From: an uncultured Alphaproteobacteria bacterium
GTDB lineage: Bacteria > Pseudomonadota > Alphaproteobacteria > CAAHEQ01 > UBA3637
DNA: 64,000 nucleotides
Assembly: GCA_944392555.1 (NCBI GenBank)
Contig: CALXWZ010000001.1
Coordinates: 65,810-129,809, forward strand
Direction of reading: 5' to 3'
Below the pieces are notes generated by a model, which saw only the letters and a list, made by a program, of their open reading frames with translations, did no database searches and was not told the origin of the DNA. Positions 14,677 to 53,226 of this stretch are shown here, piece after piece. The translations under genes and the position numbers were made by a program. Every line of letters begins with the position of its first letter. Position 1 is the first letter of the stretch.

Positions 14677-14680
14677 TTTT

Positions 14681-16281: not shown

Positions 16282-16482
16282 TGACTCTTGCAAGGTATTC
16301 GTTTTTAATTGCCTTAACAATGTAAAAAAAACGGGTATTTTTTTGTAATTTTCGGTGATTTGATAAATAAATTCGCAATTTTCTTTTTTTGCGAGGGGAT
16401 ATTTTTTACTTGCATTTAGAAAGAAAAAAATATATAATCCGCCTAACTATTCATTATTTTGAAGATGTGAGGAGAAGTCAGG

Positions 16483-16704: not shown

Positions 16705-16768
16705 AATCGGCAACTGCGTGAAGAAACGGCGCGCATTTTGTTGCCCATAAACAAAAGGGAGGCGTTCG

Positions 16769-18124: not shown

Positions 18125-18175
18125 TATCGGTGAGGCATAGAAAAACAATTTATCCGATATTATGAGGATGAAAAG

Positions 18176-20206: not shown

Positions 20207-20371
20207 AAACAGGGTGTATTTGTCAGGCGCAAGAATGTCGGTTTCAAGTAAACGGGAGGCAAACGCAAGGGCTATGCGGAGCAGAGCGGAAAGAGCAGGA
20301 AGTCAGGGGATAATAAATCAGAAAACAAGATAATAAAGCGGAAAGCAAAAGTAGAAACGGGAGTTAAAGAG

Positions 20372-21199: not shown

Positions 21200-21200
21200 T

Positions 21201-22325
21201 TTATTGTTCGGTCGGAATCGAATCGGGTGCCACCAGTAAAATCAGCTGATTGAGCATTAAAAAACCACTCTCTGTCGGATAAAATAAATTATCGGACACA
21301 TAGCCCCACCCATTTTCGCAGGCCTTTTGAATCCCGCTTTGAGCCAGTTGAGAGCACGGAAACCCGCTGTTTTTTAAGCGGAGTCCCATGATGACGCGTT
21401 CTTGTGCCGTTTCAAGCGGTGTTAATTTCGTTAATGACGGCCCTTTGGCGAGCCAATCGGCAGGTGCGCGCGGATTAACGGTTTCAAATCCGGCGATTCG
21501 TCCTTGGGCGGCGGGGCCCAGTCCCAAGTAATCCGCATAGTGCCAATATGTTAAATTATGGCGACACTCAAACCCAGCACGGGCATAGTTTGAAATTTCA
21601 TAATCGGGAACGTGATGTGTGCGCATCAGTTCATTTGTCAACTCATAAAGCGCAACGGCTGTTTCTTCGGTAGCGGAGAAAATACCTTTTTTCGCAAAAA
21701 CGGTATTTTCTTCAATGGTTAATTGATAAAGAGAGTAGTGTGGCAGATTTAAGGCTAACGCTTCTTTTAATTCTTTTTCCCAATCTGAAAGTGTTTGATT
21801 CGGACGCGCATAAATTAAGTCAATATTCAAATTATCAAACACGTTTTGCGCTTCATGAACGCAGTCAAGCGCGCGGGCAAGTGAATGTCGGCGACCGAGA
21901 AAACGCAAATCCGATTCGTTCAGGGCTTGCACGCCGATAGATAGCCGATTAACGCCCGCTTGTTTAAAATCGCGCATTTTTTCTTGTGTGACGGCATCGG
22001 GATTGGCTTCCAGCGAAATTTCAATATCGGGAGCAAAAGAAAAATTTTTTTGAAGCAACGTCATAAAAGAGTCAAAAAACAAAATCGGCATTAAAGAAGG
22101 CGTGCCACCGCCGAAATAGAGACTTGTTATCAAGGGCGGATGGGGCATCTTTTCTTTAAAAATCAAAATATCGCGCTCATAGCCTTTGAGTAAGGCATCA
22201 TAATCGGGATTTTTGCATACACGGCTTGCAAAATCGCAATACGGACATTTTGAAAGACAATACGGCCAATGAACATAAATACCGCATAACGGACGAAAGA
22301 AAGCCTGCATAACACCCCTTGACAT
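21201..22325 (-). CDS. hemW: Radical SAM heme chaperone HemW
   Basis: CxxxCxxC as CLSKCPYCDF. 374 aa. Confidence 0.85.
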   Translation of the reverse strand: MSRGVMQAFFRPLCGIYVHWPYCLSKCPYCDFASRVCKNPDYDALLKGYERDILIFKEKMPHPPLITSLYFGGGTPSLMPILFFDSFMTLLQKNFSFAPDIEISLEANPDAVTQEKMRDFKQAGVNRLSIGVQALNESDLRFLGRRHSLARALDCVHEAQNVFDNLNIDLIYARPNQTLSDWEKELKEALALNLPHYSLYQLTIEENTVFAKKGIFSATEETAVALYELTNELMRTHHVPDYEISNYARAGFECRHNLTYWHYADYLGLGPAAQGRIAGFETVNPRAPADWLAKGPSLTKLTPLETAQERVIMGLRLKNSGFPCSQLAQSGIQKACENGWGYVSDNLFYPTESGFLMLNQLILLVAPDSIPTEQ

Positions 22326-24433: not shown

Positions 24434-25918
24434 GTGAGTGCGCAAGAGTCTTTAAGTATTATCTTAAACCAACCGGGTTTCCCGCGAGCGAGGCCATTAT
24501 CAAGTGATTCAAAAGCGGGGATAACGGAAGAACGAGCGACGGAGCTGATTAACTATCAGCGGAATCTTGAGGAATTGCGAAACACGCTGAGTCAAGTAGA
24601 TTCACTGTTAGCCGAGCCACCGACGCCGGAGATAGCGGCAAAATGTGCCTCATTACTGGGATATGTAGCAGCGATAGATTTACCGCAAGAAGTCAAGAAT
24701 CAGGAAGCGGGACGATATCCGCCACAAGTGCAAGAGCAAGTGCATAGAGCGTTGGAAACGCAAGGGACGAGCACAACACGTTCAGCGGAAGCGGCGACAT
24801 ACGGGACGGCGATAATGCAACGAGTAGCGGAGGAAGCGCAAGTTCGGATACAATTAGAAGCGAAAGCGGCGTATGAGGAGAGTCGCAAGGTATACGAGCA
24901 ACAGATGCAAGCGATTGAGAATGAAATTGGTAGACTTGATGCAGAATTTTTGTCTTCCCCTTATTCCCCTGAAAGAGCAGCAGAGTACTTGCATCGCAAA
25001 CAGGTATGGCTTGATGAAAGAAGGAAACATGCTGATAAATATTGCTCAGATACTGTTTCAAATTATCCTAGTCTGTCACCGGAAGACAAGGCTAAGGTTA
25101 GAGAGGATTTGAAAGAACAAGAGAGACAAATAGAAAAGCATATAAAAGAAAAAGAAGATTATTTGAGATATTTGAATGAGCTAATGGCAAGGACGACGGA
25201 TCCTGAAGAATGTCGAAAAATTCAGTTAGCTATAAATACAACTCACGCAGATATGCAAGGATTACAAGAGATTATAGGCGGCTTTCAACGAACGCAAGCC
25301 AGGTTGGATCTGATAGACAAGCTGGTTAATGTTGGTCAACAAGAGGCGATGGATGACATTAAGAATAACATTAATGATGATAGTAGAATAATGCCAGATA
25401 AAGGCATTTCTGAAAAAGGAGTAAGAAATCCATCTCAACAACGTACACCTTTAGCGAAACAAGAGAATGATGAGAATGTTAATAGGGCGGTGTGCTCCCA
25501 ATATGCGAGTGAACATGTGAGTGGAGGTGATAGTGAAGAAATAAAGAGTGAGGATTCTGTTGAAATGGCTAAAACTTCTACGCATGTAAGCAATGGATTT
25601 GATGTATTAAATTTCTTTGATTCTAGAGAGCAAAGTAGTGTAGGAGGGTTGAGAGAAGAAGATCATTCTCAAAGCGTGCTAATGACAAGTCATAACGCTG
25701 AAGAAAGCAGTGTAATAGAACCCATACTTCAGCGTTCACCTATTATCCCCCAAGTGGATGAAGTTGTGGAAGGCACACCAGAAAAAAATGGAGTTGATAG
25801 TAATACAAGTGGTACCTTGAAGAATACGCTGGCTGGGAACTCTGTTTCAAATGATGATGATCAAGGAAAATTAATAATGCAGTATGTATTGCAAGAAAAA
25901 TCTATGTTGAATGGATAA
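24434..25918 (+). CDS. Hypothetical coiled-coil protein without a signal peptide (candidate secreted effector)
   Basis: GTG start with a GGAGG ribosome-binding site. 494 aa, long heptad-like E/Q/R-rich helices. The 3' half is AT-rich. Confidence 0.5.
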   Translation: MSAQESLSIILNQPGFPRARPLSSDSKAGITEERATELINYQRNLEELRNTLSQVDSLLAEPPTPEIAAKCASLLGYVAAIDLPQEVKNQEAGRYPPQVQEQVHRALETQGTSTTRSAEAATYGTAIMQRVAEEAQVRIQLEAKAAYEESRKVYEQQMQAIENEIGRLDAEFLSSPYSPERAAEYLHRKQVWLDERRKHADKYCSDTVSNYPSLSPEDKAKVREDLKEQERQIEKHIKEKEDYLRYLNELMARTTDPEECRKIQLAINTTHADMQGLQEIIGGFQRTQARLDLIDKLVNVGQQEAMDDIKNNINDDSRIMPDKGISEKGVRNPSQQRTPLAKQENDENVNRAVCSQYASEHVSGGDSEEIKSEDSVEMAKTSTHVSNGFDVLNFFDSREQSSVGGLREEDHSQSVLMTSHNAEESSVIEPILQRSPIIPQVDEVVEGTPEKNGVDSNTSGTLKNTLAGNSVSNDDDQGKLIMQYVLQEKSMLNG

Positions 25919-25949
25919 ATAAATTCAAGTTCAAAAGGAGAAAATAAAA

Positions 25950-27086
25950 ATGGCAAATAGAAAGAGTGCGGATGTTTCAAAAGTGTTGATGCCCGATGAG
26001 GTTAGTAAAATTTTTCACCGCACAGATGTCCTGTATAACTCACTGGTGAATGTGGAACGGAAAGCATGTGCGAGTACATTATATAATATGATTTCTGATT
26101 ATTATAAAGATTTTAAAGAATTATATGAACATGGATATCGAGATAGTATTTTTGGTATGCGCGATGAGAAGAAGGCACAAAAAGCACTTAATGATATGAA
26201 AAAAATGGATAAAAGTTTTGTTGAGAAGCTTTGTGCAACAGAGGAGGGATATTGTGTTCTCGCTGAGATAGAGCGATTTGGTGTGAAAGTTGATTGGAAT
26301 AGTGTGCCATTGACAGCAATTACAACAAAAAAGTGTATCAATTTTTTGGCAAAAAAAGGATATGATTTTGATGCAATGCGTTCTGTTAACGGTGTTGAAA
26401 TAGATTTTACGGGATATAATTTAGCCAATCTTTATATGGCGGAAAAAAACACGATAAAATCATATGATGACTTACTGGCTCAGAAAAAGGAATATGATAA
26501 ATATGAGGATAGTCTAAGAAAATATGCTATGGAATACAAGTCTCCAAAAACATCCCCTGAACGCAAAGAAGAAATTATGGGATATTTCAACTCCATTGTT
26601 CCGGAATTTAATAAAAAACAAAAAGAAATGCGAACAGGCTGTGATCGGGTTATGCGCCAAATGATCGGTTACTACGTTCATGCTGGATGCTTAGAAGCTG
26701 TTGCTGTGGACCATCAATATGTATCTCCTGAAAACATTAAGCGTATAGACCCGAAAAACTTATCATTGGGGATAGAGTATATGAATGGTCGATTGAATGC
26801 AGTTAAGCAAATCAGAGAAAAATTTAGTGCGACAGAACGGACGAGTACGAATGTTTCTTCTGATGATGGTTTAGCATTAATTGGTAGTTTGATACAGGGG
26901 AATGGTGTTTCAAGTTTATTAGCCAGTGCGGAAAGCCATGAGGCTGTCTACGCGAAAGAAGCAGAATCCGAGAAGTCGGGTATGAGCATGACGGAGCGAT
27001 TGGCGCAACAAACCCAAGGCTCAACGCTTGAAAGTGCCGAAAATGCAATGGCGTTTGTCGGTAAAGATTCACAAACAAATGCTTAA
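25950..27086 (+). CDS. Hypothetical protein, paralogue A (candidate effector)
   Basis: 378 aa. Paralogous to the 27287-28408 product. Shares its last ~56 aa nearly identically. Confidence 0.6.
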   Translation: MANRKSADVSKVLMPDEVSKIFHRTDVLYNSLVNVERKACASTLYNMISDYYKDFKELYEHGYRDSIFGMRDEKKAQKALNDMKKMDKSFVEKLCATEEGYCVLAEIERFGVKVDWNSVPLTAITTKKCINFLAKKGYDFDAMRSVNGVEIDFTGYNLANLYMAEKNTIKSYDDLLAQKKEYDKYEDSLRKYAMEYKSPKTSPERKEEIMGYFNSIVPEFNKKQKEMRTGCDRVMRQMIGYYVHAGCLEAVAVDHQYVSPENIKRIDPKNLSLGIEYMNGRLNAVKQIREKFSATERTSTNVSSDDGLALIGSLIQGNGVSSLLASAESHEAVYAKEAESEKSGMSMTERLAQQTQGSTLESAENAMAFVGKDSQTNA

Positions 27087-27286
27087 TCCGCAAGGATTAA
27101 GCATTTTCTATCTTTAAGAAATGAAAAGCAACATGGGGAGAGATAATTACAAACATTTTTATCCGCTTGAAACAGACTTAGAGAGAATTTAAGCCTGAGT
27201 TCAAGTCTATATATTGCGGGTTTATCGGTTAATCGATCCATGGGATAATTTTAAAAATTTTTAATTAAGTATAGGAGAAAATAAAG

Positions 27287-28408
27287 ATGCCAAAAGTTCG
27301 TGAAGCAATAGATGTTTTAGATGTAAGCCCGGTTTATGGTGTTTCAACCGATATGATGAATTCGTGCGCAGATGAGGTGAAAAGTCCATCTAATGCGACC
27401 AGATTGTTGAATTATATTGGGGCATATTGTGAAAAGTTTAACAAGTGTTACAGGCTTGAATACTTAAAATATATGTATCAAACACCGAATCGTAAGAAAG
27501 AAAACGAGTCCTTGGAAAAAATGAAACAAATGGATAAGGAAGTGATTGAACAGCTTATGTCGGTTGATGAGGGATATAAACCTCTTGCTGTTGCTGAAAA
27601 AAACGGGGCGAAAATCGATTGGAATAAAGTTCCGTTGACAGCCATTCTTTCACCGGGCTATATCGACTTTTTGGTAAAAAAAGGTTATGATTTTGATGCA
27701 AAGCGCACTGTGAATGGTGTGAAGACAGATTTTACATCATTTAATCTGACGTTGATGAGTGTGTTTGAAAATCAGACTTATGAAAGATATGAGGACGTTG
27801 TTAAAGCAATTGAAGAGCATAATAGGATAGTTAGAAGTGGAAAGCCTTTGCTTCAAGAATATCGCTCGCCTGAAACAACCGAGAAAAGAAAACAAGAGAT
27901 TTTGAAAGAAATGGATAAGTCGCAAAAAGCATTTGATGCTGTTTTGCAATCAATGCCGGCAAAATGTGATGCGGTCAACGAGTCAATGAATAGATATTAT
28001 ATCCATGCGGCTTTATTGGAGCATGCTATTATCACAAATCAATATGTATCGCCCGAGAATATCAAAAAGGTCAATCCGGATAAACTTTTAGAAAGTATCG
28101 GAGGGATGAATTACCGTCGAGAGAAAATGGAAAAGATAAACAAGGCGTTTAATTCAAAGCGAACGAGTAAAACAGACGAAAAAGAACAAGGATCGTTGAT
28201 GACGGCAAGTGTTTATGGTTCAGAGGGTGTATTCGGAACATTAGCCAGTGCGGAAAGTCATGAGGCTGTTTACGCAAAAGAAGCAGAAGCCGAGAAGTCG
28301 GGTATGAGTATGACGGAGCGATTGGCGCAACAAACCCAAGGCTCAACGCTTGAAAGTGCTGAAAATGCAATGGCCTTTGTCGGTAAAGATTCGCAAACAA
28401 ATGCTTAA
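27287..28408 (+). CDS. Hypothetical protein, paralogue B (candidate effector)
   Basis: 373 aa. Conserved blocks KVDWNSVPLTAI, KKGYDFDA, QYVSPENIK, and the identical C-terminal tail. Confidence 0.6.
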   Translation: MPKVREAIDVLDVSPVYGVSTDMMNSCADEVKSPSNATRLLNYIGAYCEKFNKCYRLEYLKYMYQTPNRKKENESLEKMKQMDKEVIEQLMSVDEGYKPLAVAEKNGAKIDWNKVPLTAILSPGYIDFLVKKGYDFDAKRTVNGVKTDFTSFNLTLMSVFENQTYERYEDVVKAIEEHNRIVRSGKPLLQEYRSPETTEKRKQEILKEMDKSQKAFDAVLQSMPAKCDAVNESMNRYYIHAALLEHAIITNQYVSPENIKKVNPDKLLESIGGMNYRREKMEKINKAFNSKRTSKTDEKEQGSLMTASVYGSEGVFGTLASAESHEAVYAKEAEAEKSGMSMTERLAQQTQGSTLESAENAMAFVGKDSQTNA

Positions 28409-28933
28409 TCCCACCTTTTAATGATAATCCCTTTGGTGACACGACTTGCCAAAGGGATTTTTTTAATAATGTTTCCTTTTTTACGCATTTTTCTTTTTGC
28501 CTCCATTTTGACGACCTGTTTTGATAACTTTAAATAACTTTTGGATATTTTTTTTCTAAAAAATCAGCTTAAATTCTGAAAATATAAGTAATTATGAGTG
28601 CTTCTTTTTGCTCGGTTAGTGTCCGTTTTATAAAATAAGAAAAATTTATCAGAAAAATCATATAAATAGGTGGCCAAACTATTAATGCTTCCGATTCGTG
28701 AATTTTTTTATTTCTTTTTGTTTAAAATATTAACAAATAGTATACTCTGCGGGGGTATATTAGCTTTTTTGAAATTGAAGTGATTGCTAAAATAATGATA
28801 GATGACTTTTTTTGATAAAATAAGTGAAAAATAAGTGTTTTTTTTGAAAAAAATAATAAAAAGGCATTGCAAAACAAAATAAACTGCTTTATATTGAAAC
28901 CTGGGTTTCGTGAATTCTATAAGGAGTCTATAA

Positions 28934-29206
28934 ATGAAAAATCAAATTAATGAAGATAATATTCGGGTTGCCGCTTATTATATTTGGGAGCAAGCGGGTC
29001 GTCCGGAAGGTCAAGAAAAGGAATGTTGGATAAAGGCTTGCGAACAATTGTTTGCTGCCGGAGCCGAAAATAATTCAAAATGTTGCAAAAGCAGCTGTAA
29101 ATCAAATACGGCTACCAAGTCAACAAAAGCGAAAAGTGCAAATGCTACTTCCTCCAAAACAGCAAAAGCATCTTCGGCTCAAAAAACAAAAAAATCTTTG
29201 GCATAA
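28934..29206 (+). CDS. DUF2934-family small protein
   Basis: RVAAYYIWEQAGRPEGQEKECWIKAC matches the DUF2934 signature (AYxxWExxGRPxG..W). Ala/Lys/Ser-rich tail. Confidence 0.55.
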   Translation: MKNQINEDNIRVAAYYIWEQAGRPEGQEKECWIKACEQLFAAGAENNSKCCKSSCKSNTATKSTKAKSANATSSKTAKASSAQKTKKSLA

Positions 29207-29234
29207 TCCAAAGGGGGAGGCGTTCTTTGAACGT

Positions 29235-29263
29235 AAAGCGGGGCTTTAGCTCCGCTTTTTTTT
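29235..29263 (+). terminator. Rho-independent terminator
   Basis: AAGCGGGGCTTTAGCTCCGCTT followed by T8. Confidence 0.6.
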
Positions 29264-29288
29264 GACAAAACTGCATTTATAAAAATTA

Positions 29289-29317
29289 TTGACATATATT
29301 TATTTATCAGTTATACT
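29289..29317 (+). promoter_or_regulatory. Sigma70-like promoter TTGACA-17-TATACT
   Basis: Consensus -35 with a good -10, about 35 nt upstream of the 29353 start. Confidence 0.5.
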
Positions 29318-29352
29318 CAATTATATTTTTAGATAAAAAGGAGTAGGCTGAT

Positions 29353-30750
29353 ATGATATACCCACCATGTAGTAGTGTATTTTATGAATTGAATCAATCT
29401 GTTGATAAAATTGACGCCAAAAAGAAAGAACAAATTAATCCAAGATTAACGGATGAAGAAATTCAAGCAATTTATGATTCTTTTGAAATATGCGAACCCG
29501 ATTATATGATTGAGTGCCAAACATCTTTCAAAGAAGAAAAACGGAAACAAATGCGTTTTGCGGAGGTGATTCAAAAAGCATTGGTGTATGCTAATCGGTT
29601 GCCGACAGCAAGGTTGTGGTTACGTCGTATCCCGCGGGGTATACAAGTAGGCATTTTAAAAGATGACGAAGGATTAGGGGGACGATCTGCGGGTAATAAA
29701 ATTGATATTAGTAAAGAAAAACTGAGCGAAACAATAGAAATGATTGCTCTTACCATGAGTCATGAACTGGCTCATACCATTGATCGGCATGAGTTTGCAG
29801 GATTATCCGTTTTTCCATATCAGCCTGTAAATGAAGGAGATGTTTTTCCGGCACTATGGGATTCTTCTTTAACGCAACAAGAGTTGATGCAATTTGTTCT
29901 CATTGACGAAGCCGAGAAAGCCGCACTAACGAAACAGTTGGCTTTTGAGGCAGGGTTGTATGAGTATTCCAGTACGCATACGGCACACATGAAACAGCAA
30001 TATCCGAAATTTGAAAAACTGTTTTCAACTTGGCAACCCGTATCGGCGCCCGAACAGTGGACGGATCAGGAAATTGAAAGAGAGCGTTTAACACGGGCAT
30101 TCTTCTATGCTTCTGTGGCGTCGATGAGCACAAGTATGAAAGAATTTTTAAGACCATACGGAAGTCTTGTTAAGCAAATGCCGGAACCTGTCAGAAAACA
30201 GCTAAGCAAAGAGAATATAAGCCGTTCACTTAATATGCGAAAAATTCGTTCCATGCATTTACCGCTCAATGTTCTTGCAAAAACATTTGAAACAATGGAT
30301 AAGGCTTTTGTGAATGTGATGTATCGCAGTTTTGCGTGTAATTTTTTGTGCAGACAGCTTTTACACAAGTATTGTGAACAAAATAATTTCCCTGTTGAGG
30401 AAGTTTTAAGTGATGATCGGTTTTTTGAGAAAAATTTTCTAACCTATTTAGGTGTGAAACAAGCGGAAGAGTCTAACGAACCCTCTCAATTTTTTGAGGA
30501 ATACATCAAGCGGGTGGAATTCCGATATATGGGATTAATCGGCCGAAAAGATTTATTACCCAAAAACAGCAGGATAAATTCGTATGTTTATCAAGATAGG
30601 GAAACACCGAGAAAGTCTTTATTAGATATCAAACAAACACATCAAAAAATTGCCAGAATCAAAAAAGTGATTGAGCGAAACACAAATAAAATCGGGACAT
30701 ATTTTGCTCAGCGCGTTGAGCAAGAAATGCAACAACGGAGCAAAGTGTAA
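29353..30750 (+). CDS. Putative zinc metalloprotease-like protein (HExxH), no signal peptide
   Basis: 465 aa. MSHELAHTIDRHE contains HExxH. Confidence 0.5.
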   Translation: MIYPPCSSVFYELNQSVDKIDAKKKEQINPRLTDEEIQAIYDSFEICEPDYMIECQTSFKEEKRKQMRFAEVIQKALVYANRLPTARLWLRRIPRGIQVGILKDDEGLGGRSAGNKIDISKEKLSETIEMIALTMSHELAHTIDRHEFAGLSVFPYQPVNEGDVFPALWDSSLTQQELMQFVLIDEAEKAALTKQLAFEAGLYEYSSTHTAHMKQQYPKFEKLFSTWQPVSAPEQWTDQEIERERLTRAFFYASVASMSTSMKEFLRPYGSLVKQMPEPVRKQLSKENISRSLNMRKIRSMHLPLNVLAKTFETMDKAFVNVMYRSFACNFLCRQLLHKYCEQNNFPVEEVLSDDRFFEKNFLTYLGVKQAEESNEPSQFFEEYIKRVEFRYMGLIGRKDLLPKNSRINSYVYQDRETPRKSLLDIKQTHQKIARIKKVIERNTNKIGTYFAQRVEQEMQQRSKV

Positions 30751-36689: not shown

Positions 36690-36854
36690 TTGCAAAGAAG
36701 GGGAAGCTCGGATAGAATAAAGAGTATGAGGTGATGAAATAAGCGCTTCATCCGAGAGATTAACGATACGAGATAAGTATCAAAACGTGAGTTAACTCAT
36801 TCGGGGAATGGGAAGACGGGGCTTTCGGTAAATATAAAACAAAAGGAGAGAAAC
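36690..36854 (+). promoter_or_regulatory. Promoter TTGCAA-17-TAGAAT plus conserved structured 5' leader of about 130 nt, for pilin-like gene 1
   Basis: Block duplicated at 37981-38145. Hairpin ATGAGGTG..CGCTTCAT. 12-bp palindrome TGAGTTAACTCA. Conserved GGGGAATGGGAAGACGGGGCTTTCGG. AAAGGAGAG ribosome-binding site. Confidence 0.55.
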
Positions 36855-37328
36855 ATGAAAAGAACAAATGAATCAGGCCGTTCAATGGTTGAAATGCTCG
36901 GCGTTTTGGCTATTATCGGTGTTTTATCGGTTGGTGGTATTGCCGGTTACACAATGGCAATGAACCGCTATCGTTCAAACGAAATTATTGATATGGCAAA
37001 CAAATTGGCCGTTGTTGCTTTCTCGGCTCGTGAAACATACGCTGCAATGCACAATGGTGATTCCAATGGCTTTACACCGCCTTCGTTGACTACATCTGGC
37101 TTGTATACAAGTGATAAAATCAATGGTGCAACGTTTACGGCATTAACAAATCCGGCATCTTTCTTTACGGATACAGAATGCACAGACGTAGCAGATACAA
37201 CTGAATCTGCACGGAGTGTTAAAATGGAAATCAATTTTGATACAGAAAATGTCTGCAAAGCCGCTGCTTCAACATTGGGCACAACATGTGCAAGCAACAA
37301 AGTTACATTCTGCTCACGCAGCAGCTGA
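36855..37328 (+). CDS. Type IV pilin-like protein 1 (non-canonical prepilin leader)
   Basis: MKRTNESG|RSMVEMLGVLAIIGVLSVGGIAGY has Glu at +5 and a hydrophobic helix. C-terminal Cys pair CKAA..FCSR. Confidence 0.65.
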   Translation: MKRTNESGRSMVEMLGVLAIIGVLSVGGIAGYTMAMNRYRSNEIIDMANKLAVVAFSARETYAAMHNGDSNGFTPPSLTTSGLYTSDKINGATFTALTNPASFFTDTECTDVADTTESARSVKMEINFDTENVCKAAASTLGTTCASNKVTFCSRSS

Positions 37329-37367
37329 TTTGTTGAATATAAGAATTTCGTTTTTGAAAATTCCAAG

Positions 37368-37399
37368 AGGGGCGTTCGTTTTGAACGCCTCTTTTTGTA
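37368..37399 (+). terminator. Terminator after pilin-like gene 1
   Basis: GGGGCGTTCGTTTTGAACGCCTC followed by TTTTTG. Homologous hairpin after gene 2. Confidence 0.6.
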
Positions 37400-37571
37400 T
37401 GATAACGGGCGGAGATATCTTTGTTTAACCCGAGATATCATTGTTCAATCTGAGAGATGTCTTTCTCCCCAAGTCTGAGAGTGATCTTACTCCTCCGTTT
37501 GAGAAATGTTTGCCGTTCGTTTGAAAAACTGCGAATAACGGGGCATTTTAACGCTGTTCGATTGGAACGCT

Positions 37572-37690
37572 AAAAGCCGTCGCATTTTCGCCCGTTCGCG
37601 CGGGATATAAAAAGCCGTCGCATTTTCGCCCGTTCGCGCGGGATATAAAAAGCCGTTGCATTTTCACCCTGTTCGCGCAGGATATAAAAA
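37572..37690. repeat. Tandem direct repeat, about 38 bp x 3 (plus one degenerate upstream copy)
   Basis: gccgtcgcattttcgcccgttcgcgcgggatataaaaa repeated head-to-tail with no spacers. Confidence 0.8.
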
Positions 37691-37980
37691 GCGCAAAGCA
37701 CGCGATATTTTTACGCAAAAAAACAAGTGATAACTGCCCTCTGCCGAGAGAAGTGGGAGCAAAAAGCAAGCGCGGTTTTTATGCCGAAAAAGGCGTTGCA
37801 ATGTATTCAAATTTGATTTTGGATTAGGGGAAAGGCCGTAGACAAGGTTATTGACTTTTTGGTGCGTGCCAAACAGGTGATTATATTTTGCTGTTTCTGA
37901 AAAAAGAAAACCCCAATACCCAAAAAATCTAAAATTTCCCAAAAATTTAAATAAAAATTATATTTTTTATAAAAAAATAG

Positions 37981-38145
37981 TTGCAAACTTAAAAATTATT
38001 TAATAGAATAATAAGTATGAAGTGATGAAAAAGGCACTTCATCCGAAAGAATAACGATGCGAAATAAACATCAAAACGGGAGTTGACTCATTCGGGGAAT
38101 GGGAAGACGGGGCTTTCGGGAAACGAAAAAGAAAAGGAGAGAAAC
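37981..38145 (+). promoter_or_regulatory. Promoter TTGCAA-17-TAGAAT plus conserved structured 5' leader, for pilin-like gene 2
   Basis: Second copy of the 36690-36854 block. Hairpin ATGAAGTG..CACTTCAT. Confidence 0.55.
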
Positions 38146-38622
38146 ATGAAAAGAACAAATGAATCAGGCCGTTCAATGGTTGAAATGCTCGGCGTTTTAG
38201 CGATTATCGGTGTTTTATCGGTTGGTGGTATTGCGGGTTACACAATGGCAATGAACCGCTATCGTTCCAACGAAATTATTGATATGGCAAACAAATTGGC
38301 CGTTGTTGCTTTCTCGGCGCGTGAAACATATATGGCAATGCACAACGGTGATACTATACCAACATCAGATGTGCCGGATTTAGCGTCATCAGGGTTGTAT
38401 ACGAGCAGTGTAATTAATGGAGCAACATTTGAAACTCCTACGTTTTATTCTGATACAACCTGTACGACTCCAATAGTTGCTAGTACCAAAAATCAATCTG
38501 CACGGAGTATTAAAATTGTAATCAATTTTAATGGAAATGACAACGTATGCAAAGCTGCAGCTTCAACACTAGGAGAAGATTGTTCTGGCGGTAAGGTAGA
38601 GTTTTGCTCACGCGCCAGCTAA
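38146..38622 (+). CDS. Type IV pilin-like protein 2
   Basis: Start MKRTNESGRSMVEML at 38146, which is the second Met of track ORF 38083-38622. First 70 aa about 95% identical to gene 1. Variable centre. Cys pair CKAAASTLGEDCSGGKVEFCSRAS. Confidence 0.65.
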   Translation: MKRTNESGRSMVEMLGVLAIIGVLSVGGIAGYTMAMNRYRSNEIIDMANKLAVVAFSARETYMAMHNGDTIPTSDVPDLASSGLYTSSVINGATFETPTFYSDTTCTTPIVASTKNQSARSIKIVINFNGNDNVCKAAASTLGEDCSGGKVEFCSRAS

Positions 38623-38665
38623 TCAGCGAAACACAAGAATTTCGTTTTTAAACATTCTGAACAAC

Positions 38666-38696
38666 GGGGCGTTCGCTTTGAACGCCTCACTTTTTT
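38666..38696 (+). terminator. Terminator after pilin-like gene 2
   Basis: GGGGCGTTCGCTTTGAACGCCTC followed by TTTTTT. Confidence 0.6.
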
Positions 38697-38708
38697 CCGC
38701 TTACTATT

Positions 38709-38718
38709 CCCCCCCCCC
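38709..38718. repeat. Homopolymeric C10 tract
   Basis: ttattCCCCCCCCCCac, about 230 bp upstream of pilin-like gene 3. Confidence 0.9.
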
Positions 38719-38947
38719 ACTCGCCTGCATGCACTGACCTTATCGCTTTCACGATGATGATTTTTCTATCCCCCTTTTTTACCTTGATTTCTGAATAAAT
38801 TAAAAAAGTTATCAATATGATATAAAAAAACTTGAACTTTTAATTTGAAAACAGTATAATGAACTATCACCGATATCGTCAGTTTGAATCGCCAGCCTTT
38901 AAAAGGCTGATTCGGGTGCGGGTCGGGGTTAGATAAAAGGAATTAAA

Positions 38948-39412
38948 ATGCAAAAAACAAATGAATCAGGTCGCTCAATGGTGGAAATGCTAGCCGTTTT
39001 GGCGATTATTGCCGTCCTGTCCATTGGCGGAACGCTGGGTTATTTGCTCGGTATGCGTCGCTATCGGGCTGATTTGGTTTTAGATGTTGCTTCAAAATAT
39101 GCTTCAACTGTCTATATGCAGTTTCAATCCTATAAAGCCAAGCATGGTGGCTCAGTTGTCGGGTTCACACCGGTAACGCTTGCCAATTCCGGCGTGAGTA
39201 TTGCGAATATGGATTCAATTAACGGCGTCGGGATTGCCTTAAATACGGCATATAGTGGTGGAAAAGAGTGTGTTGGCGGTATTTGTGAAAATGGGGTAAG
39301 TATCCTAATGTCGTTCCCGCAAGAGCAGTTGGAAATATGCAAAACAATTACGATTATGTTAAGCGTGGATAATACATGCCCCGATTTGGTTCGCTTCTTT
39401 CCGCAAAGTTAG
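38948..39412 (+). CDS. Type IV pilin-like protein 3 (divergent)
   Basis: MQKTNESGRSMVEMLAVLAIIAVLSIGGTLGY. C-terminal Cys-rich region CVGGICENG..CKT..C. Confidence 0.6.
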   Translation: MQKTNESGRSMVEMLAVLAIIAVLSIGGTLGYLLGMRRYRADLVLDVASKYASTVYMQFQSYKAKHGGSVVGFTPVTLANSGVSIANMDSINGVGIALNTAYSGGKECVGGICENGVSILMSFPQEQLEICKTITIMLSVDNTCPDLVRFFPQS

Positions 39413-39784: not shown

Positions 39785-41509
39785 TCATGCGTATGATTTT
39801 GTGGACTTGAATGATGAAGCAATGCAATGTTTTCTCATATAGGAATCGTATTGTTTTTTCTGTTCGGGAAATTTCTTGAAATAGGCCGATAATTCGGCAT
39901 TACTTTGATATTTCCCGCCATACCGCATAAACACCTCGGCATTCCGCGGATTAAACAAAATGGCATACGTGACAGGTGTAATCCCGCTTGCATTGGGCCG
40001 ATTGAGCAAAGCTTGAACGGCTTTTTTATCGGAATACGTGAGTAATTGCTTGACCATTTGATTCATCACGGCTGAATCGTATATATTATCGGCTGCCAGA
40101 TGAAAAACAGTTTCCCCTGCCTGAGTATTGCCGAAACTTCCCGTCAATAGTGTGGGGTTCGCCCCTTGCTTCATTAAATTGGCAACAACGCCTACATGCC
40201 CGTGTTCAACGGCGGCTTCAAGTAATCGCGCTCCCGTTTCTCCTGTACTACGCGCTGTTTTGGTTTTAAAGCCTTGTGTGTTAATTTCACTGCCGAAGTT
40301 GAGCCAACTGCTCATACGTTCCAATTCCGCAGGTGTTTTATTCGGTGTGTAAAGAGCGTCCATCATTGCTTGATAGGCCGTTTTCGGCGACATAACAGGT
40401 GTTTTCCCGCCGGCTTTTACCCCTATGCCCGCCAGTTCCGCAGGTTTCGGTGTTTTGGGCAATGTTAAGCCACGCACGGCCGGAATAGGCGGTGCAACCA
40501 TTTCTTTTCCGCGGGGGCTTATCGGTTGCTCTAACACCACGCCTTCCAACAACTCCTTGATTTGATACATCACCTCAATTTGCGCGGCACTGCGTTGAGG
40601 ATCCGTACATGTACCAAAAAAGTGCAACCTACTTGCTTCGCGCGCTCTTGGAAATCCGGTTGATGTGTCCAGAGGAATAAATTGTTTATTTACTTCCGCA
40701 TCAAACCGCTTTTTTTCGGCAGTTGAAATATGTTCGGGTGACCAGTGTATCCCTTCCGCAATTTTTCCGCCGATGAGCCGTTCATTATTTTCTTTGCGAA
40801 TATAGGGACTCATTATCCGAACAAAATCATTGATCATTTCAGGCGTCGGTTTCTTCTCAGGTGTTGCAAAATACACATTCAACGTATCTATGCGATTTGT
40901 TGTGTGGCAATCTACCGGAGATTTATATTTCGCCCCGTATTTTTCGGCAAACGCATCCATCGCGTCTACCCATTCAGGCGTGCAATTAACATTTGCCGTT
41001 ATCCGAAAAGAGGTTGCTAATTTGCTCATTCTGTTTTGCTGATAAGATTCCGATGTTCTCCATAACCAAGGGTTATCATCGTCACCGGTTGAGGCCTCCA
41101 CTTTCCCCGTGTTCGTTAACATCTTATGATAGAATGAATCTTCTTGTGCAATGCTGGGAAGGGTGGAAAAATGAGCATGTCTTAAGAATTGATAGTAAGA
41201 ATCACTTAAATGTATCAACACGGCATTCGTTAGCGGAAGAGGCGGAAACTCGTCGGCATTTGTCAACGAAAAAACACTCTTTGGCTGAAACTTCATTTCA
41301 ATCGGTGCGGAATTTGTTTTCTCGGATTTCGCCTGTTGCGAAATATGCTTCGTAAGGATTTGCACGATATACGAGGCATAGGCCGATTTTTCGTTCTCCT
41401 CACCCATCTGTCTATGCAATTTTTTCCAAAAGCGAAGATAGTTGGCATCTTCCGCCCTGTGAGAATATGTTTTAAGCCCCAGTTCATTAAACAAATCTAT
41501 TAAGTGCAT
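39785..41509 (-). CDS. Ankyrin-repeat protein without a signal peptide (candidate effector)
   Basis: 574 aa. N-terminal ~130 aa carry ANK-like repeats (GARLLEAAVEHGHVGVVANLMKQGANP ... ETVFHLAA). Large unknown C-terminal domain. Last gene of a 3-gene minus-strand operon. Confidence 0.55.
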   Translation of the reverse strand: MHLIDLFNELGLKTYSHRAEDANYLRFWKKLHRQMGEENEKSAYASYIVQILTKHISQQAKSEKTNSAPIEMKFQPKSVFSLTNADEFPPLPLTNAVLIHLSDSYYQFLRHAHFSTLPSIAQEDSFYHKMLTNTGKVEASTGDDDNPWLWRTSESYQQNRMSKLATSFRITANVNCTPEWVDAMDAFAEKYGAKYKSPVDCHTTNRIDTLNVYFATPEKKPTPEMINDFVRIMSPYIRKENNERLIGGKIAEGIHWSPEHISTAEKKRFDAEVNKQFIPLDTSTGFPRAREASRLHFFGTCTDPQRSAAQIEVMYQIKELLEGVVLEQPISPRGKEMVAPPIPAVRGLTLPKTPKPAELAGIGVKAGGKTPVMSPKTAYQAMMDALYTPNKTPAELERMSSWLNFGSEINTQGFKTKTARSTGETGARLLEAAVEHGHVGVVANLMKQGANPTLLTGSFGNTQAGETVFHLAADNIYDSAVMNQMVKQLLTYSDKKAVQALLNRPNASGITPVTYAILFNPRNAEVFMRYGGKYQSNAELSAYFKKFPEQKKQYDSYMRKHCIASSFKSTKSYA

Positions 41510-48906: not shown

Positions 48907-50628
48907 TTAAAAAGGTAAAAAATTTAACTCTAGTTGTTCTGTTTCTGTAGATAACGAATTAGTGAAAATAAATTTTTTTATTTCTTCATAACTATTTTGT
49001 TGTCTATGGTAGAGGTTTCTATTTTTATTTTTTATATCAATAAATTCATTAATTTTATAAACGATCTCATCTACAGCTCGTGAAATTTTATTTTTTTCAA
49101 ATAAAAAATTTCCAATAGATATATTATTTTTTTTAAAAACTAATTCTAAAATCAAACGATTCCAATGTATTATAAATTTATTACGCTCATCTTTTAGTAT
49201 ATTTTCTATTTCTTTATCCACTAACAACTTTATTTCACAAAGAGCTAAAAATAATGGAAGATTTTTTAAAGATAATAACTCAAGGTATAATTTATCATTA
49301 CTCCATAATTCACCTTTGTTATTTTTAACGATTCTCGAATACCCATAAAAGCAACCTAAAGCAATCATTAAGTCTTCAAAAGAAATATTACTTATATTTT
49401 CAGAATATTCTCCAGTTCTATATGTATAGTAAAAATTATTTTTAATAAAAAACTTTTTAATTTCATCATGTATCGGATCTAGGGTTCTTAAATCCATTGC
49501 TGATACCGAATTTTGAGAGTTATTAAATCTGGTTATTTTAAATGATAAACCATTCTCAATAGGTTGCAATGAAGTTTCAATTATTCTTATTTGAACTAAA
49601 GCATCATCAGTAATATTTTCAACAGATGCACAAGACAATACTGTTTGAGCACCATTTACAATACTTAAATTTTCAACTTTTAAGGTTTTTAAATTATTTG
49701 ACGATGCACTACTTGCTAAAACTTTTATGTTATCACAAACAAATGTAATGCCGTTATTGTAATAAATAAATTTATCAGCTTCTTCAATCAATGTCTCTTT
49801 AATTTTTTTATTAATAGCTGAATTGTCAACTAAAAATCTAATATTTTTTGAAAATAGATTGTTTTGATATTTTTGATACAATTGTTTTAAGTATGATATT
49901 TTGATACATCCAACGTACATTTTTATTGGAGTGTCTCTATAAAAATATCTATCTAATGTGAAAATTTCTGTAACATTTCTGGGTTGTATCTCATATTCGA
50001 AAATTTTTTCATTATTGATTATTATATACTTTTCAATAAATTCACCATATTCCGAATTATTTAAAATTTCTTCTGTTAAAAAAGAGGTAATTTCATTAGG
50101 TATTTGTTGTCCAAAAAATACAATTACAGGTACAATTTTAAGTTCGTCATCTAATAATATTTTTTGTAAATCGTATTTTTTATTTTGTATGTGCTGATTT
50201 AAAGTATCTAAAGAATCATCTAAAGATAATATGGCATGAATACCCATTTTTATATCTTTGATATTATCTCTTGAAATTGAATTAGAAAATTTTGTTTGAA
50301 ACAAATAAAGATTATGATTAAAATAATATATAGCATCAATTCCCATATCATTTGTATCATCTGTTATGTGTAATGCAGCCTCATTTTCGGGAATATGAAA
50401 TTCTTTCATTAAAATATAGGCAGTTAGTGCTCTTGAAAGGAAATTACCATACTCTTGCTTTTTGAAATTTTCTAAAAAATAACCATTAAATATACTATTT
50501 AATTTTTGAGCCAAATTCTTTTTTTGACTTTTAAATTTAATATTAGAAAGAGATTTTACTTCTGTTTCTATAAGTTGTGCGATGCTTTCCAAACCTTTAT
50601 ATTGCACTAAATCAGATAAAGTTTTCAC
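48907..50628 (-). CDS. Hypothetical protein co-transcribed with the RM system (possible AIPR-like abortive-infection protein)
   Basis: 573 aa, about 30% GC. Start overlaps the restriction endonuclease stop. The AIPR assignment rests on context and size only. Confidence 0.4.
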   Translation of the reverse strand: MKTLSDLVQYKGLESIAQLIETEVKSLSNIKFKSQKKNLAQKLNSIFNGYFLENFKKQEYGNFLSRALTAYILMKEFHIPENEAALHITDDTNDMGIDAIYYFNHNLYLFQTKFSNSISRDNIKDIKMGIHAILSLDDSLDTLNQHIQNKKYDLQKILLDDELKIVPVIVFFGQQIPNEITSFLTEEILNNSEYGEFIEKYIIINNEKIFEYEIQPRNVTEIFTLDRYFYRDTPIKMYVGCIKISYLKQLYQKYQNNLFSKNIRFLVDNSAINKKIKETLIEEADKFIYYNNGITFVCDNIKVLASSASSNNLKTLKVENLSIVNGAQTVLSCASVENITDDALVQIRIIETSLQPIENGLSFKITRFNNSQNSVSAMDLRTLDPIHDEIKKFFIKNNFYYTYRTGEYSENISNISFEDLMIALGCFYGYSRIVKNNKGELWSNDKLYLELLSLKNLPLFLALCEIKLLVDKEIENILKDERNKFIIHWNRLILELVFKKNNISIGNFLFEKNKISRAVDEIVYKINEFIDIKNKNRNLYHRQQNSYEEIKKFIFTNSLSTETEQLELNFLPF

Positions 50629-51521
50629 TTCAACAGCTCCTCTAAAACACCCTTTTGAATCATATCAAGATTAATGATATAATCTATTGTATTAAACGTA
50701 TCTCGTAATGGGCGCTGTGTTTTCTTCCATCCATAACCATCTGTTACCCAAATAAACTGATGTCCATCATTAGTCCATTGATGATAAATATCTGCATATT
50801 CTCCAGCAGTCGATTTTAATTTGGAACCACCACCACCATAAAAGTTCGTTTCAATTAAATATAGCTTATTAGGGGTATTAATTGCAAAATCTATTCTCTT
50901 TGAAGATTTTGTTACTGTAATATTTTTCCCCCACTTTGACTTGATTTTATCAGCAGTTGCTTGAGCAATATATTCATATCCGTTTCGTTCACAGATATCT
51001 TTTACAAAAAATTCAACTAAATTTTCCATAGATGTTCCGCTGCGATTTTTACGTCCATTAGAATCTAATCCAACTTCAACACCAATAAAATAATCAGGGA
51101 TAGATTTAATGTTGCGATTTGATAGTAATTCTAAAAATCCACTTTCTTGCAAGAATAAAACACCATCTTCTGCTGACATAGATTTTGTAAAATCAAAGCG
51201 CTTAATATCAAAATTTTGAGGATTTGTCAATAGTGCGATTTTTTTATCTCTCTCCGCTAAAAGAGCCGGAACTATGCCAATAACTTTAGGATATTCCTGT
51301 AACAATTTTAACGCAGCTTGTTCAACATCTTCTTTGCCTATCAAAGTATTTAATAAATTTAATGAGGTTTCAACATCCTGATAATTTTTAATTACTTTTT
51401 TCCAATTTACAAAATAATCGAATGATTTAATAGTTTCTTTCAGAGAAGATATAAGATAAGCAAAAACCTCATCTTCTTTATTACAACTTAAAATCTTTTT
51501 ATATGCTGGATGTTGTTTCAT
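50625..51521 (-). CDS. Type II restriction endonuclease, DpnII/MboI-like (GATC)
   Basis: 298 aa. Sits downstream of the Dam-like and DpnA-like methyltransferases, in the dpnM-dpnA-dpnB order of the S. pneumoniae DpnII cassette. Confidence 0.55.
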   Translation of the reverse strand: MKQHPAYKKILSCNKEDEVFAYLISSLKETIKSFDYFVNWKKVIKNYQDVETSLNLLNTLIGKEDVEQAALKLLQEYPKVIGIVPALLAERDKKIALLTNPQNFDIKRFDFTKSMSAEDGVLFLQESGFLELLSNRNIKSIPDYFIGVEVGLDSNGRKNRSGTSMENLVEFFVKDICERNGYEYIAQATADKIKSKWGKNITVTKSSKRIDFAINTPNKLYLIETNFYGGGGSKLKSTAGEYADIYHQWTNDGHQFIWVTDGYGWKKTQRPLRDTFNTIDYIINLDMIQKGVLEELLK

Positions 51522-52294
51522 TTATTGCCTCCTTTTATAGCAGAAAGTCTTTTTTCTGCAAGCTCTACAAACTTTTTTTCTTTTTCAATACCAACAAATT
51601 TTCTGTTATGTTTTAATGCCGCAACTCCAGTTGTTGCACTACCCATAAAGGGATCTAAAATTAAATCTCCTTCATTTGTTGATGCTAAAATAATTCTTTC
51701 TAATAAATCCAACGGTTTTTGGGTTGGATGTTTACCAAAAGTCTTTTCGCTTTTCTTTGGCGTTCCAATAGCCCAAACACTTCTCATCTGCGTATTAGGC
51801 TTTTTAATAAAGTCAGACGAAAAATCTCCGTTTTTCATGAGCTCATAATTAAAGGTATGCTTTGTTTTTTTATCTTTTCTTGCCCAAATCAATGTTTCAT
51901 GACTGGCAGTAAAATACCTGCAACACATATTAGGACTAGCATTTGGTTTAAACCAAGAAATATCGTTTAATATGTGATACCCCAATAATTGCATCGCAAA
52001 ACCACAAGAATAAATACTGTGATAAGTACCGGAAACCCAAAGTGTTCCGTTTTTCTTTAAAACTCTTTTACAAGCAGATAGCCATCTTTTATGAAATTCG
52101 AAATCCTGTTCAAATCCTTGACTTTCATCCCATTTGCCTTTGTTGACGGAAACGACTTTTCCGTTTTGACAGGTAATACCTCCGTTTGATAACATATATG
52201 GCGGATCTGCAAAAATCATATCAAATGTATTTTCTGGGATTTCTTCCAGAATTTTTAAACAATCATCATGATATAATCGATAGTTTTTCATCAT
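51518..52294 (-). CDS. N6-adenine / N4-cytosine DNA methyltransferase (beta class, DpnA-like)
   Basis: DPPY motif early (FADPPYM). C-terminal FxGxG (DPFMGSATTG). Confidence 0.75.
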   Translation of the reverse strand: MMKNYRLYHDDCLKILEEIPENTFDMIFADPPYMLSNGGITCQNGKVVSVNKGKWDESQGFEQDFEFHKRWLSACKRVLKKNGTLWVSGTYHSIYSCGFAMQLLGYHILNDISWFKPNASPNMCCRYFTASHETLIWARKDKKTKHTFNYELMKNGDFSSDFIKKPNTQMRSVWAIGTPKKSEKTFGKHPTQKPLDLLERIILASTNEGDLILDPFMGSATTGVAALKHNRKFVGIEKEKKFVELAEKRLSAIKGGNK

Positions 52295-53226
52295 ACGCCG
52301 TAATTTGTAATGAGTATTTCTCTGATTTCACCACGTCCATCCGAATTCGCATTAATCAAACGTTTTGCCAAAATACGATAAATGTTGTAATCATGATATA
52401 AATCATCAAAAAATGGATCAGGTCCAACATTTGTTGGATCTGAATTGCTTAACATTTGCAGGGCACCCAATTTATGTGCTTGCTCAAAAACATTTTTCAA
52501 TCGGATTTGTTCATTATCATCAAAAGTTTCTACGGCATAAGTTGTAAAAGAAGAATCCTTTAACGGACGATATGGAGGATCGTAATAGATAAATGTATTG
52601 TTATCTGCAAAATCCAATGCTTTAGCAAAATCTGCCTGTAAAATTATTGCTTTACTTAATGCTTTTGAAACAGCTATTAAATTTTCTCTATCCAGAATGC
52701 GAGGATTCTTATAACTTCCCATCGGGACATTAAATAGGCCTTTGCTGTTAACCCTGAACAATCCATTAAAACAAGTTCTGTTTAAGAAAACAGTTAATGC
52801 AGCACGTCTGATAAACGATAAAGAATAATGGTTAGCATCTATTTTTTTATCAAACGAATTATATTCCTCACGCATTTGATAGTAAAATTCTTTCCTATCA
52901 GTTGATGAAAAATAAGATATTTGTAAGCGTTCTAGTTCATCAATCAATTCCAACACATTATTTTTGATAACGTTATAAAGAATGACTAATTCCGGATTAA
53001 TATCAAACAAATAAGCTTCTTCAAAATAGTATGAATTAGATATATCAAAAAAAACAGCCCCACCGCCAACAAATGGCTCAATATATTTTTTGATTGCACC
53101 ACAACGAAGTTTATTCGGTAGTTTTGGAGATAGTTGAGGCAATAACATACCCTTACCACCTGCCCATTTTAAAACAGGAGATGCAAAGTTTATTTCATTA
53201 TTCTTTTGTAATGCTAATTCTACCAT
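52291..53226 (-). CDS. Dam-family N6-adenine DNA methyltransferase (DpnM-like)
   Basis: KWAGGK ... EPFVGGGAVFF ... DPPY. Confidence 0.8.
   Translation of the reverse strand: MVELALQKNNEINFASPVLKWAGGKGMLLPQLSPKLPNKLRCGAIKKYIEPFVGGGAVFFDISNSYYFEEAYLFDINPELVILYNVIKNNVLELIDELERLQISYFSSTDRKEFYYQMREEYNSFDKKIDANHYSLSFIRRAALTVFLNRTCFNGLFRVNSKGLFNVPMGSYKNPRILDRENLIAVSKALSKAIILQADFAKALDFADNNTFIYYDPPYRPLKDSSFTTYAVETFDDNEQIRLKNVFEQAHKLGALQMLSNSDPTNVGPDPFFDDLYHDYNIYRILAKRLINANSDGRGEIREILITNYGV

Follow-up and report, generated by a model that had tools for sequence, protein, structure and literature searches.

Four GRSMVEML genes of an uncultured gut Alphaproteobacterium as probable prepilins of a bundle-forming-pilus-like type IVb filament

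The DNA analysed here (the window) is a stretch of 64,000 nucleotides from an uncultured Alphaproteobacteria bacterium (GenBank assembly GCA_944392555.1, contig CALXWZ010000001.1, positions 65,810 to 129,809). It carries four genes, termed g1 to g4, the last of them cut by the window end, whose products begin with the same unusual prepilin-like leader. In our judgement these are most probably prepilins of a type IVb, bundle-forming-pilus (BFP)-like type IV filament in an uncultured gut Alphaproteobacterium. An earlier reading of the letters alone (the sequence-only reading) had proposed an unusual family of pilins in which the leader is of the class III type and one half of the protein is variable and bears a disulfide. 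That proposal is upheld by type IVb matches of g4 and of relatives, by the predicted structure of g1 and by linkage of the family to BFP-like genes in related genomes.

A class III-type leader common to four genes

All four genes lie on the forward (+) strand. g1 (36855-37328) encodes a prepilin-like protein of 157 residues with the leader MKRTNESG, a predicted mature start RSMVEML and four Cys in its variable half. g2 (38146-38622, ATG at 38146) encodes a g1 paralogue of 158 residues with the leader MKRTNESG, and g3 (38948-39412) a paralogue of 154 residues at approximately 40% identity to g1, with the leader MQKTNESG and a g1-like alpha1 helix. The first 76 of the 153 codons of g4 (63773-64000, with the 3' part beyond the window end) are present in the window, and its leader, MRAVSSESG, has nine residues. 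The ATG of g4 at 63773 overlaps the stop codon of cca (63774-63776) in an ATGA at 63773-63776, as had been proposed. A six-frame search of the 64 kb returned G-R-S-M-V-E-M-L four times, each 8-9 codons into g1, g2, g3 and g4 and nowhere else. Upon alignment, ESGRSMVEML.V.AII.V..GG was found to be common to g1-g4, with Gly at -1, Arg at +1, Ser at +2 and Glu at +5. The open reading frame (ORF) coordinates, the search and the alignment together bear out the four genes with this leader that were originally described.

A class III signal peptide consists of a hydrophilic leader, 6-26 residues long and with Gly at its end, followed by roughly 21 mainly hydrophobic residues broken by Glu5, and all type IV filament subunits carry this N-terminal motif (PMC4471445). 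The leaders of g1-g4, which are hydrophilic, Gly-terminated and 8-9 residues long, fall within this definition. So does the hydrophobic tract R-S-M-V-E-M-L-G-V-L-A-I-I-G-V-L-S-V-G-G-I, which spans 21 residues with Glu at +5. The sole departure is the charged Arg at +1. The description of the +1 residue as non-canonical holds in that Arg is unusual, but a residue other than Phe is normal at this position in type IVb pilins, since BfpA, BfpI, BfpJ and BfpK all read G/LSLIE (the slash marks the cleavage site). With leaders of 8-9 residues and proteins of 153-158 residues, g1-g4 are type IVa-like in length and lie outside the historic type IVb limits (leader of 15-30 and prepilin of 180-200 residues), which a review calls no longer reliable (PMC4471445).

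Type IVb head domains in g4 and in relatives

The full-length g4 was read in a near-identical contig (L006 11170-11631) and encodes 153 residues. This protein passes the Pfam PilS model (PF08805) with an E-value of 6e-9 and 36.4 bits against a cut-off of 22. When a profile of 48 homologues was run against the PDB, PilS (1q5f, E 3e-4) and bundlin (BfpA; 1zwt, E 4e-4) were matched, the former in the NxWGG...F.IT...VP..AC core. A g4-type protein, P0241 (96% identical to g4), was predicted to form a helix at residues 8-59 plus a sheet, at a predicted local distance difference test score (pLDDT) of 85. The top 12 PDB matches of this model in Foldseek were all type IVb pilins (CofA at E 6e-4, then TcpA and PilS; probability 0.91-1.0), and it aligned to 3fhu and 1q5f at probability 0.97-1.0. 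Compared to PilS of Salmonella Typhi (PF08805; 1q5f, 3fhu), the likeness lies in the Pfam PilS match of g4 and of 29 out of 105 family members; the differences are that g4 has only 153 residues and a 9-residue leader, and that g1-g3 have no PilS match. The next gene after g4, just past the window end (L006 12039-13046), encodes another GRSMVEML protein with a long Cys-rich C-terminus.

The AlphaFold2 (AF2) model of g1, built from 68 homologues, reached a pLDDT of 91.5 and is a helix-plus-sheet lollipop, with a helix at residues 7-65 and strands at 92-94, 121-128 and 149-155. Its top four PDB matches in Foldseek were all full-length type IV pilins, namely TcpA from the toxin-coregulated pilus (TCP) filament, M. 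xanthus PilA, T. thermophilus PilA4 and PAK pilin. The pilin-like alpha1 helix plus beta-sheet for which a structure prediction had been suggested is therefore seen, as predicted structure, in both the g1 and the g4-type model. When g1-g4 were compared with type IVb head domains (PF08805, PF05307, PF05946 or solved pilins), g4 was recognised and g1, g2 and g3 were not. Pfam gave no hit for g1-g3 at E <= 0.001, with the PilS model unmatched, and a PDB profile search with the g1 family returned only a marginal N-terminal geopilin match besides spurious Wzz matches. From their sequences, the head of g1-g3 appears to be a distinct small fold, carried on an N-terminal module that is common with type IVb-headed relatives, and g1-g3 would presumably use the same machinery as these relatives.

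Homologues of g1 form more than 7,853 clusters at 90% identity, none with a Pfam domain. Where source names are given they all read 'hypothetical protein', with 'MAG: Alphaproteobacteria bacterium' as the source (MAG, metagenome-assembled genome). At least 569 family loci were found in species-representative genomes, nearly all of them gut/rumen Alphaproteobacteria MAGs with several loci per genome. The MAG hosts were rabbit, goat, sheep, roe deer and human, and one locus lies in Acetobacter sp. CAG:977. Text searches of the literature returned no paper with a GRSMVEML-type motif and no paper tying RF32 to pili. In 87 loci there were 121 motif-bearing ORFs, in which 39-622 residues follow the motif. 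The G, R, S, M, E, M and L of the motif, Arg+1 and Glu+5 included, were invariant in 105 out of 105 distinct proteins, and Gly was placed 5-8 residues after the start in most of 106 distinct motif-bearing ORFs. Pfam analysis of the 105 proteins with the same N-terminus identified PilS in 29, Bundlin in 28 and TcpA in 1, and many members therefore combine the N-terminal module with a pilin head of the type IVb kind. Neighbours of family members are mostly housekeeping genes.

A few family members match EGF_2, teneurin-EGF and laminin-EGF models, that is, pilin N-termini are fused to EGF-like Cys-rich modules. Large GRSM[VI]EML proteins of approximately 460-520 residues with no Pfam domain were also observed near small g1-type genes, their neighbours all being housekeeping genes (L009 690-2126, L011 833-2392, L015 10769-12148, L017 1519-3066 and L033 6510-8063); by analogy, they recall the large type IVb minor pilins CofB and TcpB. 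A few family loci (L009, L031, L035, L045, L066 and L071) come from bins labelled Gastranaerophilales, [Ruminococcus] gnavus, Bacteroidaceae and Acidaminococcaceae. These off-lineage labels are probably binning errors and not true spread.

Linkage of the family to BFP-like machinery

In locus L080 the gene for a 317-residue T2SSE-family ATPase lies between two pilin genes. The family of this ATPase spans 59-100% identity among the best 120 matches listed, the named sources being Alphaproteobacteria MAGs, and small (BfpF-like) ATPases of this type elsewhere stand alone amid housekeeping genes. In one MAG with a g4 orthologue beside RNase D, a 935-residue T2SSE ATPase and a T2SSF platform protein are encoded 7 kb away. 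This T2SSF was utilized as a metagenome probe, which gave 54 loci, 26 of them with enough downstream sequence. In 23 of these 26 loci, one to three GRSMVEML pilin genes lie at most 3.5 kb downstream of the BfpE-like platform gene.

Locus L127 encodes, in order, an unassigned product (1218-3080), a TcpQ-domain (BfpG-like) protein (3139-3831), a BfpB-like secretin (3797-5437), a PAP_PilO (BfpC-like) protein (5456-6730), a coiled-coil protein (6687-8285), a BfpD-like T2SSE ATPase (8295-9965) and a BfpE-like T2SSF platform protein (9977-11104). Directly after the platform gene follow a 191-residue Bundlin-like protein with an N-terminal membrane anchor and no Gly-1/Glu5 motif (11107-11682), three PilS/Bundlin-type GRSMVEML pilins (11752-12321, 12731-13327 and 13465-14055) and a 320-residue T2SSE ATPase (14134-15096). 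Among annotated plasmid relatives of the L127 ATPase, BfpD of enteropathogenic Escherichia coli (EPEC) plasmid pMAR2 shared 35.6% identity over 97% of the length, while the top-ranked plasmid match was an unnamed ATPase on a Bosea plasmid. Each protein of the annotated pMAR2 bfp operon was then run by phmmer against all ORFs of the sampled related loci. The best E-values were 6e-17 for BfpA, 1.5e-17 for BfpG, 9e-63 for BfpB, 1e-19 for BfpC, 3e-97 for BfpD, 2e-68 for BfpE and 1e-50 for BfpF, the BfpF match being the small ATPase of L080. BfpJ gave one marginal match at 0.003, and BfpP, BfpH, BfpI, BfpK, BfpL and BfpU gave none among these ORFs.

We regard the GRSMVEML family as supplying the pilins of a BFP-like type IVb system on account of the G-B-C-x-D-E gene order, the Bfp matches and the N-termini (ESG/RSMVE compared to G/LSLIE, which in Bfp pilins is preceded by ESG or KG up to the cleavage site). 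The EPEC operon (bfpA-G-B-C-U-D-E-F-P-H-I-J-K-L) and the loci of the relatives have in common the order BfpG-BfpB-BfpC-x-BfpD-BfpE and, in addition, a BfpF-like ATPase. The pilins resemble each other in that BfpI and BfpJ read (K)ESG/LSLIE where this family reads NESG/RSMVEM, and 28 of the 105 family proteins match Pfam Bundlin. They differ at +1, which is Arg in this family and Leu in Bfp pilins, and in the leader, which including Gly-1 has 6-9 residues in most family members and 13 in BfpA. Family genes lie 3' of the platform gene or are scattered in many chromosomal copies, whereas bfpA is single and heads a plasmid operon. Some family paralogues have extra modules, no peptidase (bfpP) is encoded in the operons of the relatives, and the hosts are uncultured gut/rumen Alphaproteobacteria in contrast to the enteric pathogen that carries BFP.

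A Walker-A match near a pilin gene in L081 was considered as a pilus ATPase and rejected, as it proved to be ClpX. In L088, from one MAG, the BfpF-like ATPase gene is followed after approximately 2 kb by a Mu-like prophage (13352-21290; Mu transposase, TniB-like ATPase, GemA and Mor).

Counter-evidence, maturation and alternative readings

Several results weigh against the assignment of g1-g4 to a type IVb filament. Genes for an ATPase, platform and secretin accompany the family in relatives, but no pilus machinery was found inside the 64-kb window, and for this particular genome the machinery genes are presumed from those relatives. To our knowledge no characterised bacterial pilin has a charged Arg at +1, a position at which the well-studied pilins all carry a hydrophobic residue. 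The N_methyl (PF07963) and TIGR02532 models were the top-ranked families and yet scored under cut-off, at 14.4-17.4 bits against 21.2 for N_methyl and at 7.5-15.6 against 16.3 for TIGR02532 with g1-g3; TIGR02532 did not match g4. g1-g3 thereby pass no curated pilin model, and the profile check that had been proposed with these two models came out negative. We attribute the low scores mostly to the Arg-Ser-Met at +1 to +3. The Foldseek E-values of the g1 model are weak (0.09-0.6), and hhalign of g1-type against PilS-type globular domains gave nothing significant (probability 0.15%). Finally, neither the window nor the bfpP position of the BFP-like operons yielded an A24 prepilin peptidase, and none was detected in the 2.0 Mb of related loci, which are a biased sample of loci and not whole genomes. 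The search employed a GxGD[..]K regular expression, screens for ORFs with multiple transmembrane (TM) segments, and phmmer with a P. aeruginosa PilD sequence and with the BfpP of pMAR2. Since the searched DNA is a biased sample, the peptidase gene may lie elsewhere. Two ORFs of the window, one at 13861-14862 (multi-TM, no Pfam hit) and one at 16769-18124 (451 residues, eight predicted membrane segments, no Pfam match), were considered as peptidase candidates and rejected, as neither has A24 motifs.

Cleavage between Gly and Arg is what the leader suggests. It is conceivable, though rather unlikely, that the invariant Arg+1-Ser+2-Met+3 together with the lack of a bfpP-type gene in otherwise BFP-like operons mark pilins that are matured unlike characterised ones, either by a non-A24 or divergent peptidase or without N-methylation. 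Speculatively, in the latter variant Arg1, one helical turn from Glu5, would take over from the methylated N-terminal amine the neutralisation of Glu5 in the membrane and filament core. If such a class exists, its dozens of dispersed paralogues per genome, some of them EGF-like-fused, would amount to a modular surface display specific to gut Alphaproteobacteria. The role of the pilin N-terminus and of its methylation is described as still enigmatic (PMC4471445), and an invariant Arg1 without an operon-encoded peptidase would be a natural test of what these two do.

The proteins could also be pseudopilins, or build a short type IV filament that stays in the periplasm and serves secretion or DNA uptake, instead of a surface pilus. 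The N-terminal motif is common to all type IV filament subunits (PMC4471445) and is as such compatible with this alternative, as are weak NCBIfam matches to prepilin peptidase-dependent proteins and XpsH and the scatter of the genes amid housekeeping genes. We nevertheless consider it unlikely. The machinery linked to the family is BFP-like, with a secretin, BfpG/TcpQ- and BfpC-like proteins and a putative BfpF-like retraction ATPase, and it showed no genes of the GspC/L/M type. The globular domains of the relatives are PilS, Bundlin and TcpA, and the strain-level hypervariability of half the protein together with strong promoters, both described below, suggests that g1 and g2 supply an abundant exposed subunit. 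A type II secretion pseudopilin in the strict sense (GspG-K models, gsp operon) was rejected, as only XpsH was matched, at 11.6 bits against a cut-off of 160, and the machinery is not Gsp-like.

Alternatively, the leader could be an uncleaved signal anchor on small membrane-tethered periplasmic or surface proteins that are merely pilin-like. The lack of a prepilin peptidase in the sampled DNA, the atypical Arg at +1 and the sub-threshold scores of all curated N-terminal motif models are in line with this, and the Bundlin-like protein of L127 (11107-11682) has an anchor without Gly-1 or Glu5. Yet G-R-S-M-[VI]-E-M-L is invariant in 105 diverse proteins with a Gly-Glu spacing of exactly five residues, a pattern expected of a processing or assembly signal, and the genes are operon-linked to an extension ATPase, a platform and a secretin. 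An uncleaved anchor is accordingly held to be very unlikely.

Mosaic structure of g1 and g2

The products of g1 and g2 share 98% identity over residues 1-64 and approximately 55% beyond. The near-identical N-terminus that had been noted is thus confirmed, with 98% in place of the approximately 95% first given. The C-terminal Cys-Cys loop, described before as conserved, is present in both proteins as the block NVCKAAASTLG...C...V.FCSR.S; g3 is without it. In 14 g1/g2-type alleles the first 68 residues are identical, and the rest varies by substitutions and indels around four conserved Cys. Synonymous divergence (dS) between g1 and g2 was 0.19 for codons 1-68 and 1.82 for the rest, and between g2 of the window and g2 of strain L001 it was 0.16 and 1.50, respectively. 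The g2 segment at approximately 38350-38520 could not be aligned in L001 although the flanking DNA is 97% identical, and across three strains g1 was identical and g3 nearly identical. The allele comparison asked for earlier hence shows a variable g2 segment that differs in L001 beside a constant 5' part. The roughly tenfold gap in dS goes beyond what protein constraint alone would give and points to recombination, by 5' homogenisation or by import of divergent 3' segments. The dS contrast and the replaced g2 segment in one strain are our grounds for taking the g1/g2 mosaic to be recombinational.

The duplication of g1 and g2 spans the whole transcription unit, i.e. promoter, untranslated region (UTR), ribosome-binding site, coding sequence and terminator, all on the + strand, so that the duplicated promoter, leader and terminator that had been proposed are confirmed for g1/g2 at the DNA level. 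The g1 promoter (36690-36718) is sigma-70-like, TTGCAA-17-TAGAAT, and the g2 promoter (37981-38009) has the same hexamers and spacing, TTGCAA-17-TAGAAT; g3 has TTGAAC-17-TATAAT at 38832-38860. With transcription starts placed from the -10 box, the g1 5' UTR (36724-36854) has approximately 130 nt and is predicted to form a 5'-terminal hairpin and a second multi-branch stem, followed by a AAGGAGAG ribosome-binding site. The g2 5' UTR (38015-38145), which is approximately 88% identical, is predicted to fold likewise. Minimum free energies (MFE) were -27.1 kcal/mol for g1 (z -2.65) and -26.5 kcal/mol for g2 (z -3.19). No Rfam family was matched in the locus apart from a sub-threshold microRNA (miRNA) match. 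These UTRs may act as mRNA-stabilising or regulatory leaders. Intrinsic terminators follow at 37367-37396 for g1, a GC-rich hairpin with a T-run that was read from the letters and aligns with that of g2, and at 38666-38698 for g2. Both genes have the AAGGAGAG ribosome-binding site and a GGGGCGTTCG..CGAACGCC hairpin, then a T-run. g1 and g2 are probably expressed independently, in tandem, and strongly so.

A tandem repeat of 38 bp (37572-37692, + strand; 3.2 copies, 95% matches) lies in the g1-g2 spacer. It is strain-variable, with diverged copies in L001 and approximately one copy in L002. A run of ten C (C10) at 38709-38718, between the g2 terminator and the g3 promoter, is replaced by mixed T/C pyrimidines in two other strains. 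It could be a slippage-prone tract, and no effect on g3 is evident.

The P. aeruginosa PilA groups and Neisseria PilE are allelic, recombining type IVa major pilins. g1-g4 are like them in the invariant alpha1 and the hypervariable C-terminal half with conserved Cys, in the evidence for recombination and in the scatter of the pilin genes. They are unlike them in that residues from +1 are Arg-Ser-Met instead of Phe-Thr-Leu, in that no silent cassettes occur in the window, and in that the machinery linked to the family and, where detectable, its globular fold are type IVb. Their size of approximately 150 residues and their short leaders lie within published type IVa ranges (PMC4471445).

The likeness to antigenic-variation cassettes that was first drawn holds for the mosaic and its recombination signature (dS and the L001 allele), but the units are complete and tblastn and blastn with the C-terminal halves returned no copy in the 64 kb that lacks a promoter or is truncated at its 5' end. 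Antigenic variation of the Neisseria type, in which silent donor cassettes overwrite a single expression locus through gene conversion, would account for the layout of constant 5' part, variable centre and conserved Cys-bearing 3' block, for the tenfold lower synonymous divergence in the 5' part and for the g2 segment that differs between otherwise 97%-identical strains; it is nonetheless extremely improbable here, as each of the tandem copies is a complete gene equipped with a promoter, UTR, ribosome-binding site, leader and terminator, g1 does not differ and g3 hardly differs among three strains, and the silent-cassette mechanism finds no support in a window without promoterless or truncated copies. 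Exchange among full-length paralogues and alleles is a better description of the mosaic.

Proposed filament and implications

With g1-g4 taken as type IVb prepilins, each would be inserted in the inner membrane through its class III-type signal by the signal recognition particle (SRP)/Sec route, and removal of the 8-residue leader behind Gly8 would place Arg at position 1 and Glu at position 5 of the mature protein. The invariant alpha1 helix, long and hydrophobic, would pack in the filament core. The fibre would be extruded by an ATPase, a platform and a secretin that resemble BfpD, BfpE and BfpB, respectively, and a BfpF-like ATPase may retract it. g1 and g2 would be the abundant, surface-exposed, variable subunits, with the 68 N-terminal residues buried and the C-terminal half exposed. 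g3 is a conserved paralogue and g4 a conserved pilin of the PilS type, presumably transcribed together with cca, and each probably serves as a minor or alternative subunit; any assignment of the major subunit to a particular gene is presumptive. Recombination and diversifying selection on the surface plausibly maintain the pattern of constant and variable parts, with phage or host immunity as plausible drivers.

Enteric pathogens and their plasmids are the main known sources of type IVb pili (BFP, TCP, CFA/III and the R64 thin pilus). On the reading preferred here, uncultured commensal gut/rumen Alphaproteobacteria would carry on their chromosomes a BFP-like system together with a very large family of pilins, and the strain-variable, highly expressed pilins would be candidate gut adhesins, phage receptors and immune targets. 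A model based on GRSM[VI]EML would furthermore give names to thousands of 'hypothetical' proteins.

Other features of the window

Four ORFs of 373-494 residues with no Pfam match were observed at 24434-30750, a stretch of 36-38% GC. A low-GC island at 48907-53226 (- strand; 29% compared to approximately 42%) is a restriction-modification and defence cluster, with genes for a D12-class adenine methyltransferase, an N6/N4 methyltransferase, a DpnII-type endonuclease and an AIPR abortive-infection protein. Two large ankyrin-repeat proteins, encoded at 39785-41509 and at 59848-61290 (- strand), flank the pilin loci, and ankyrin proteins also adjoin the RNase D-cca-g4 block in orthologous contexts of other MAGs.

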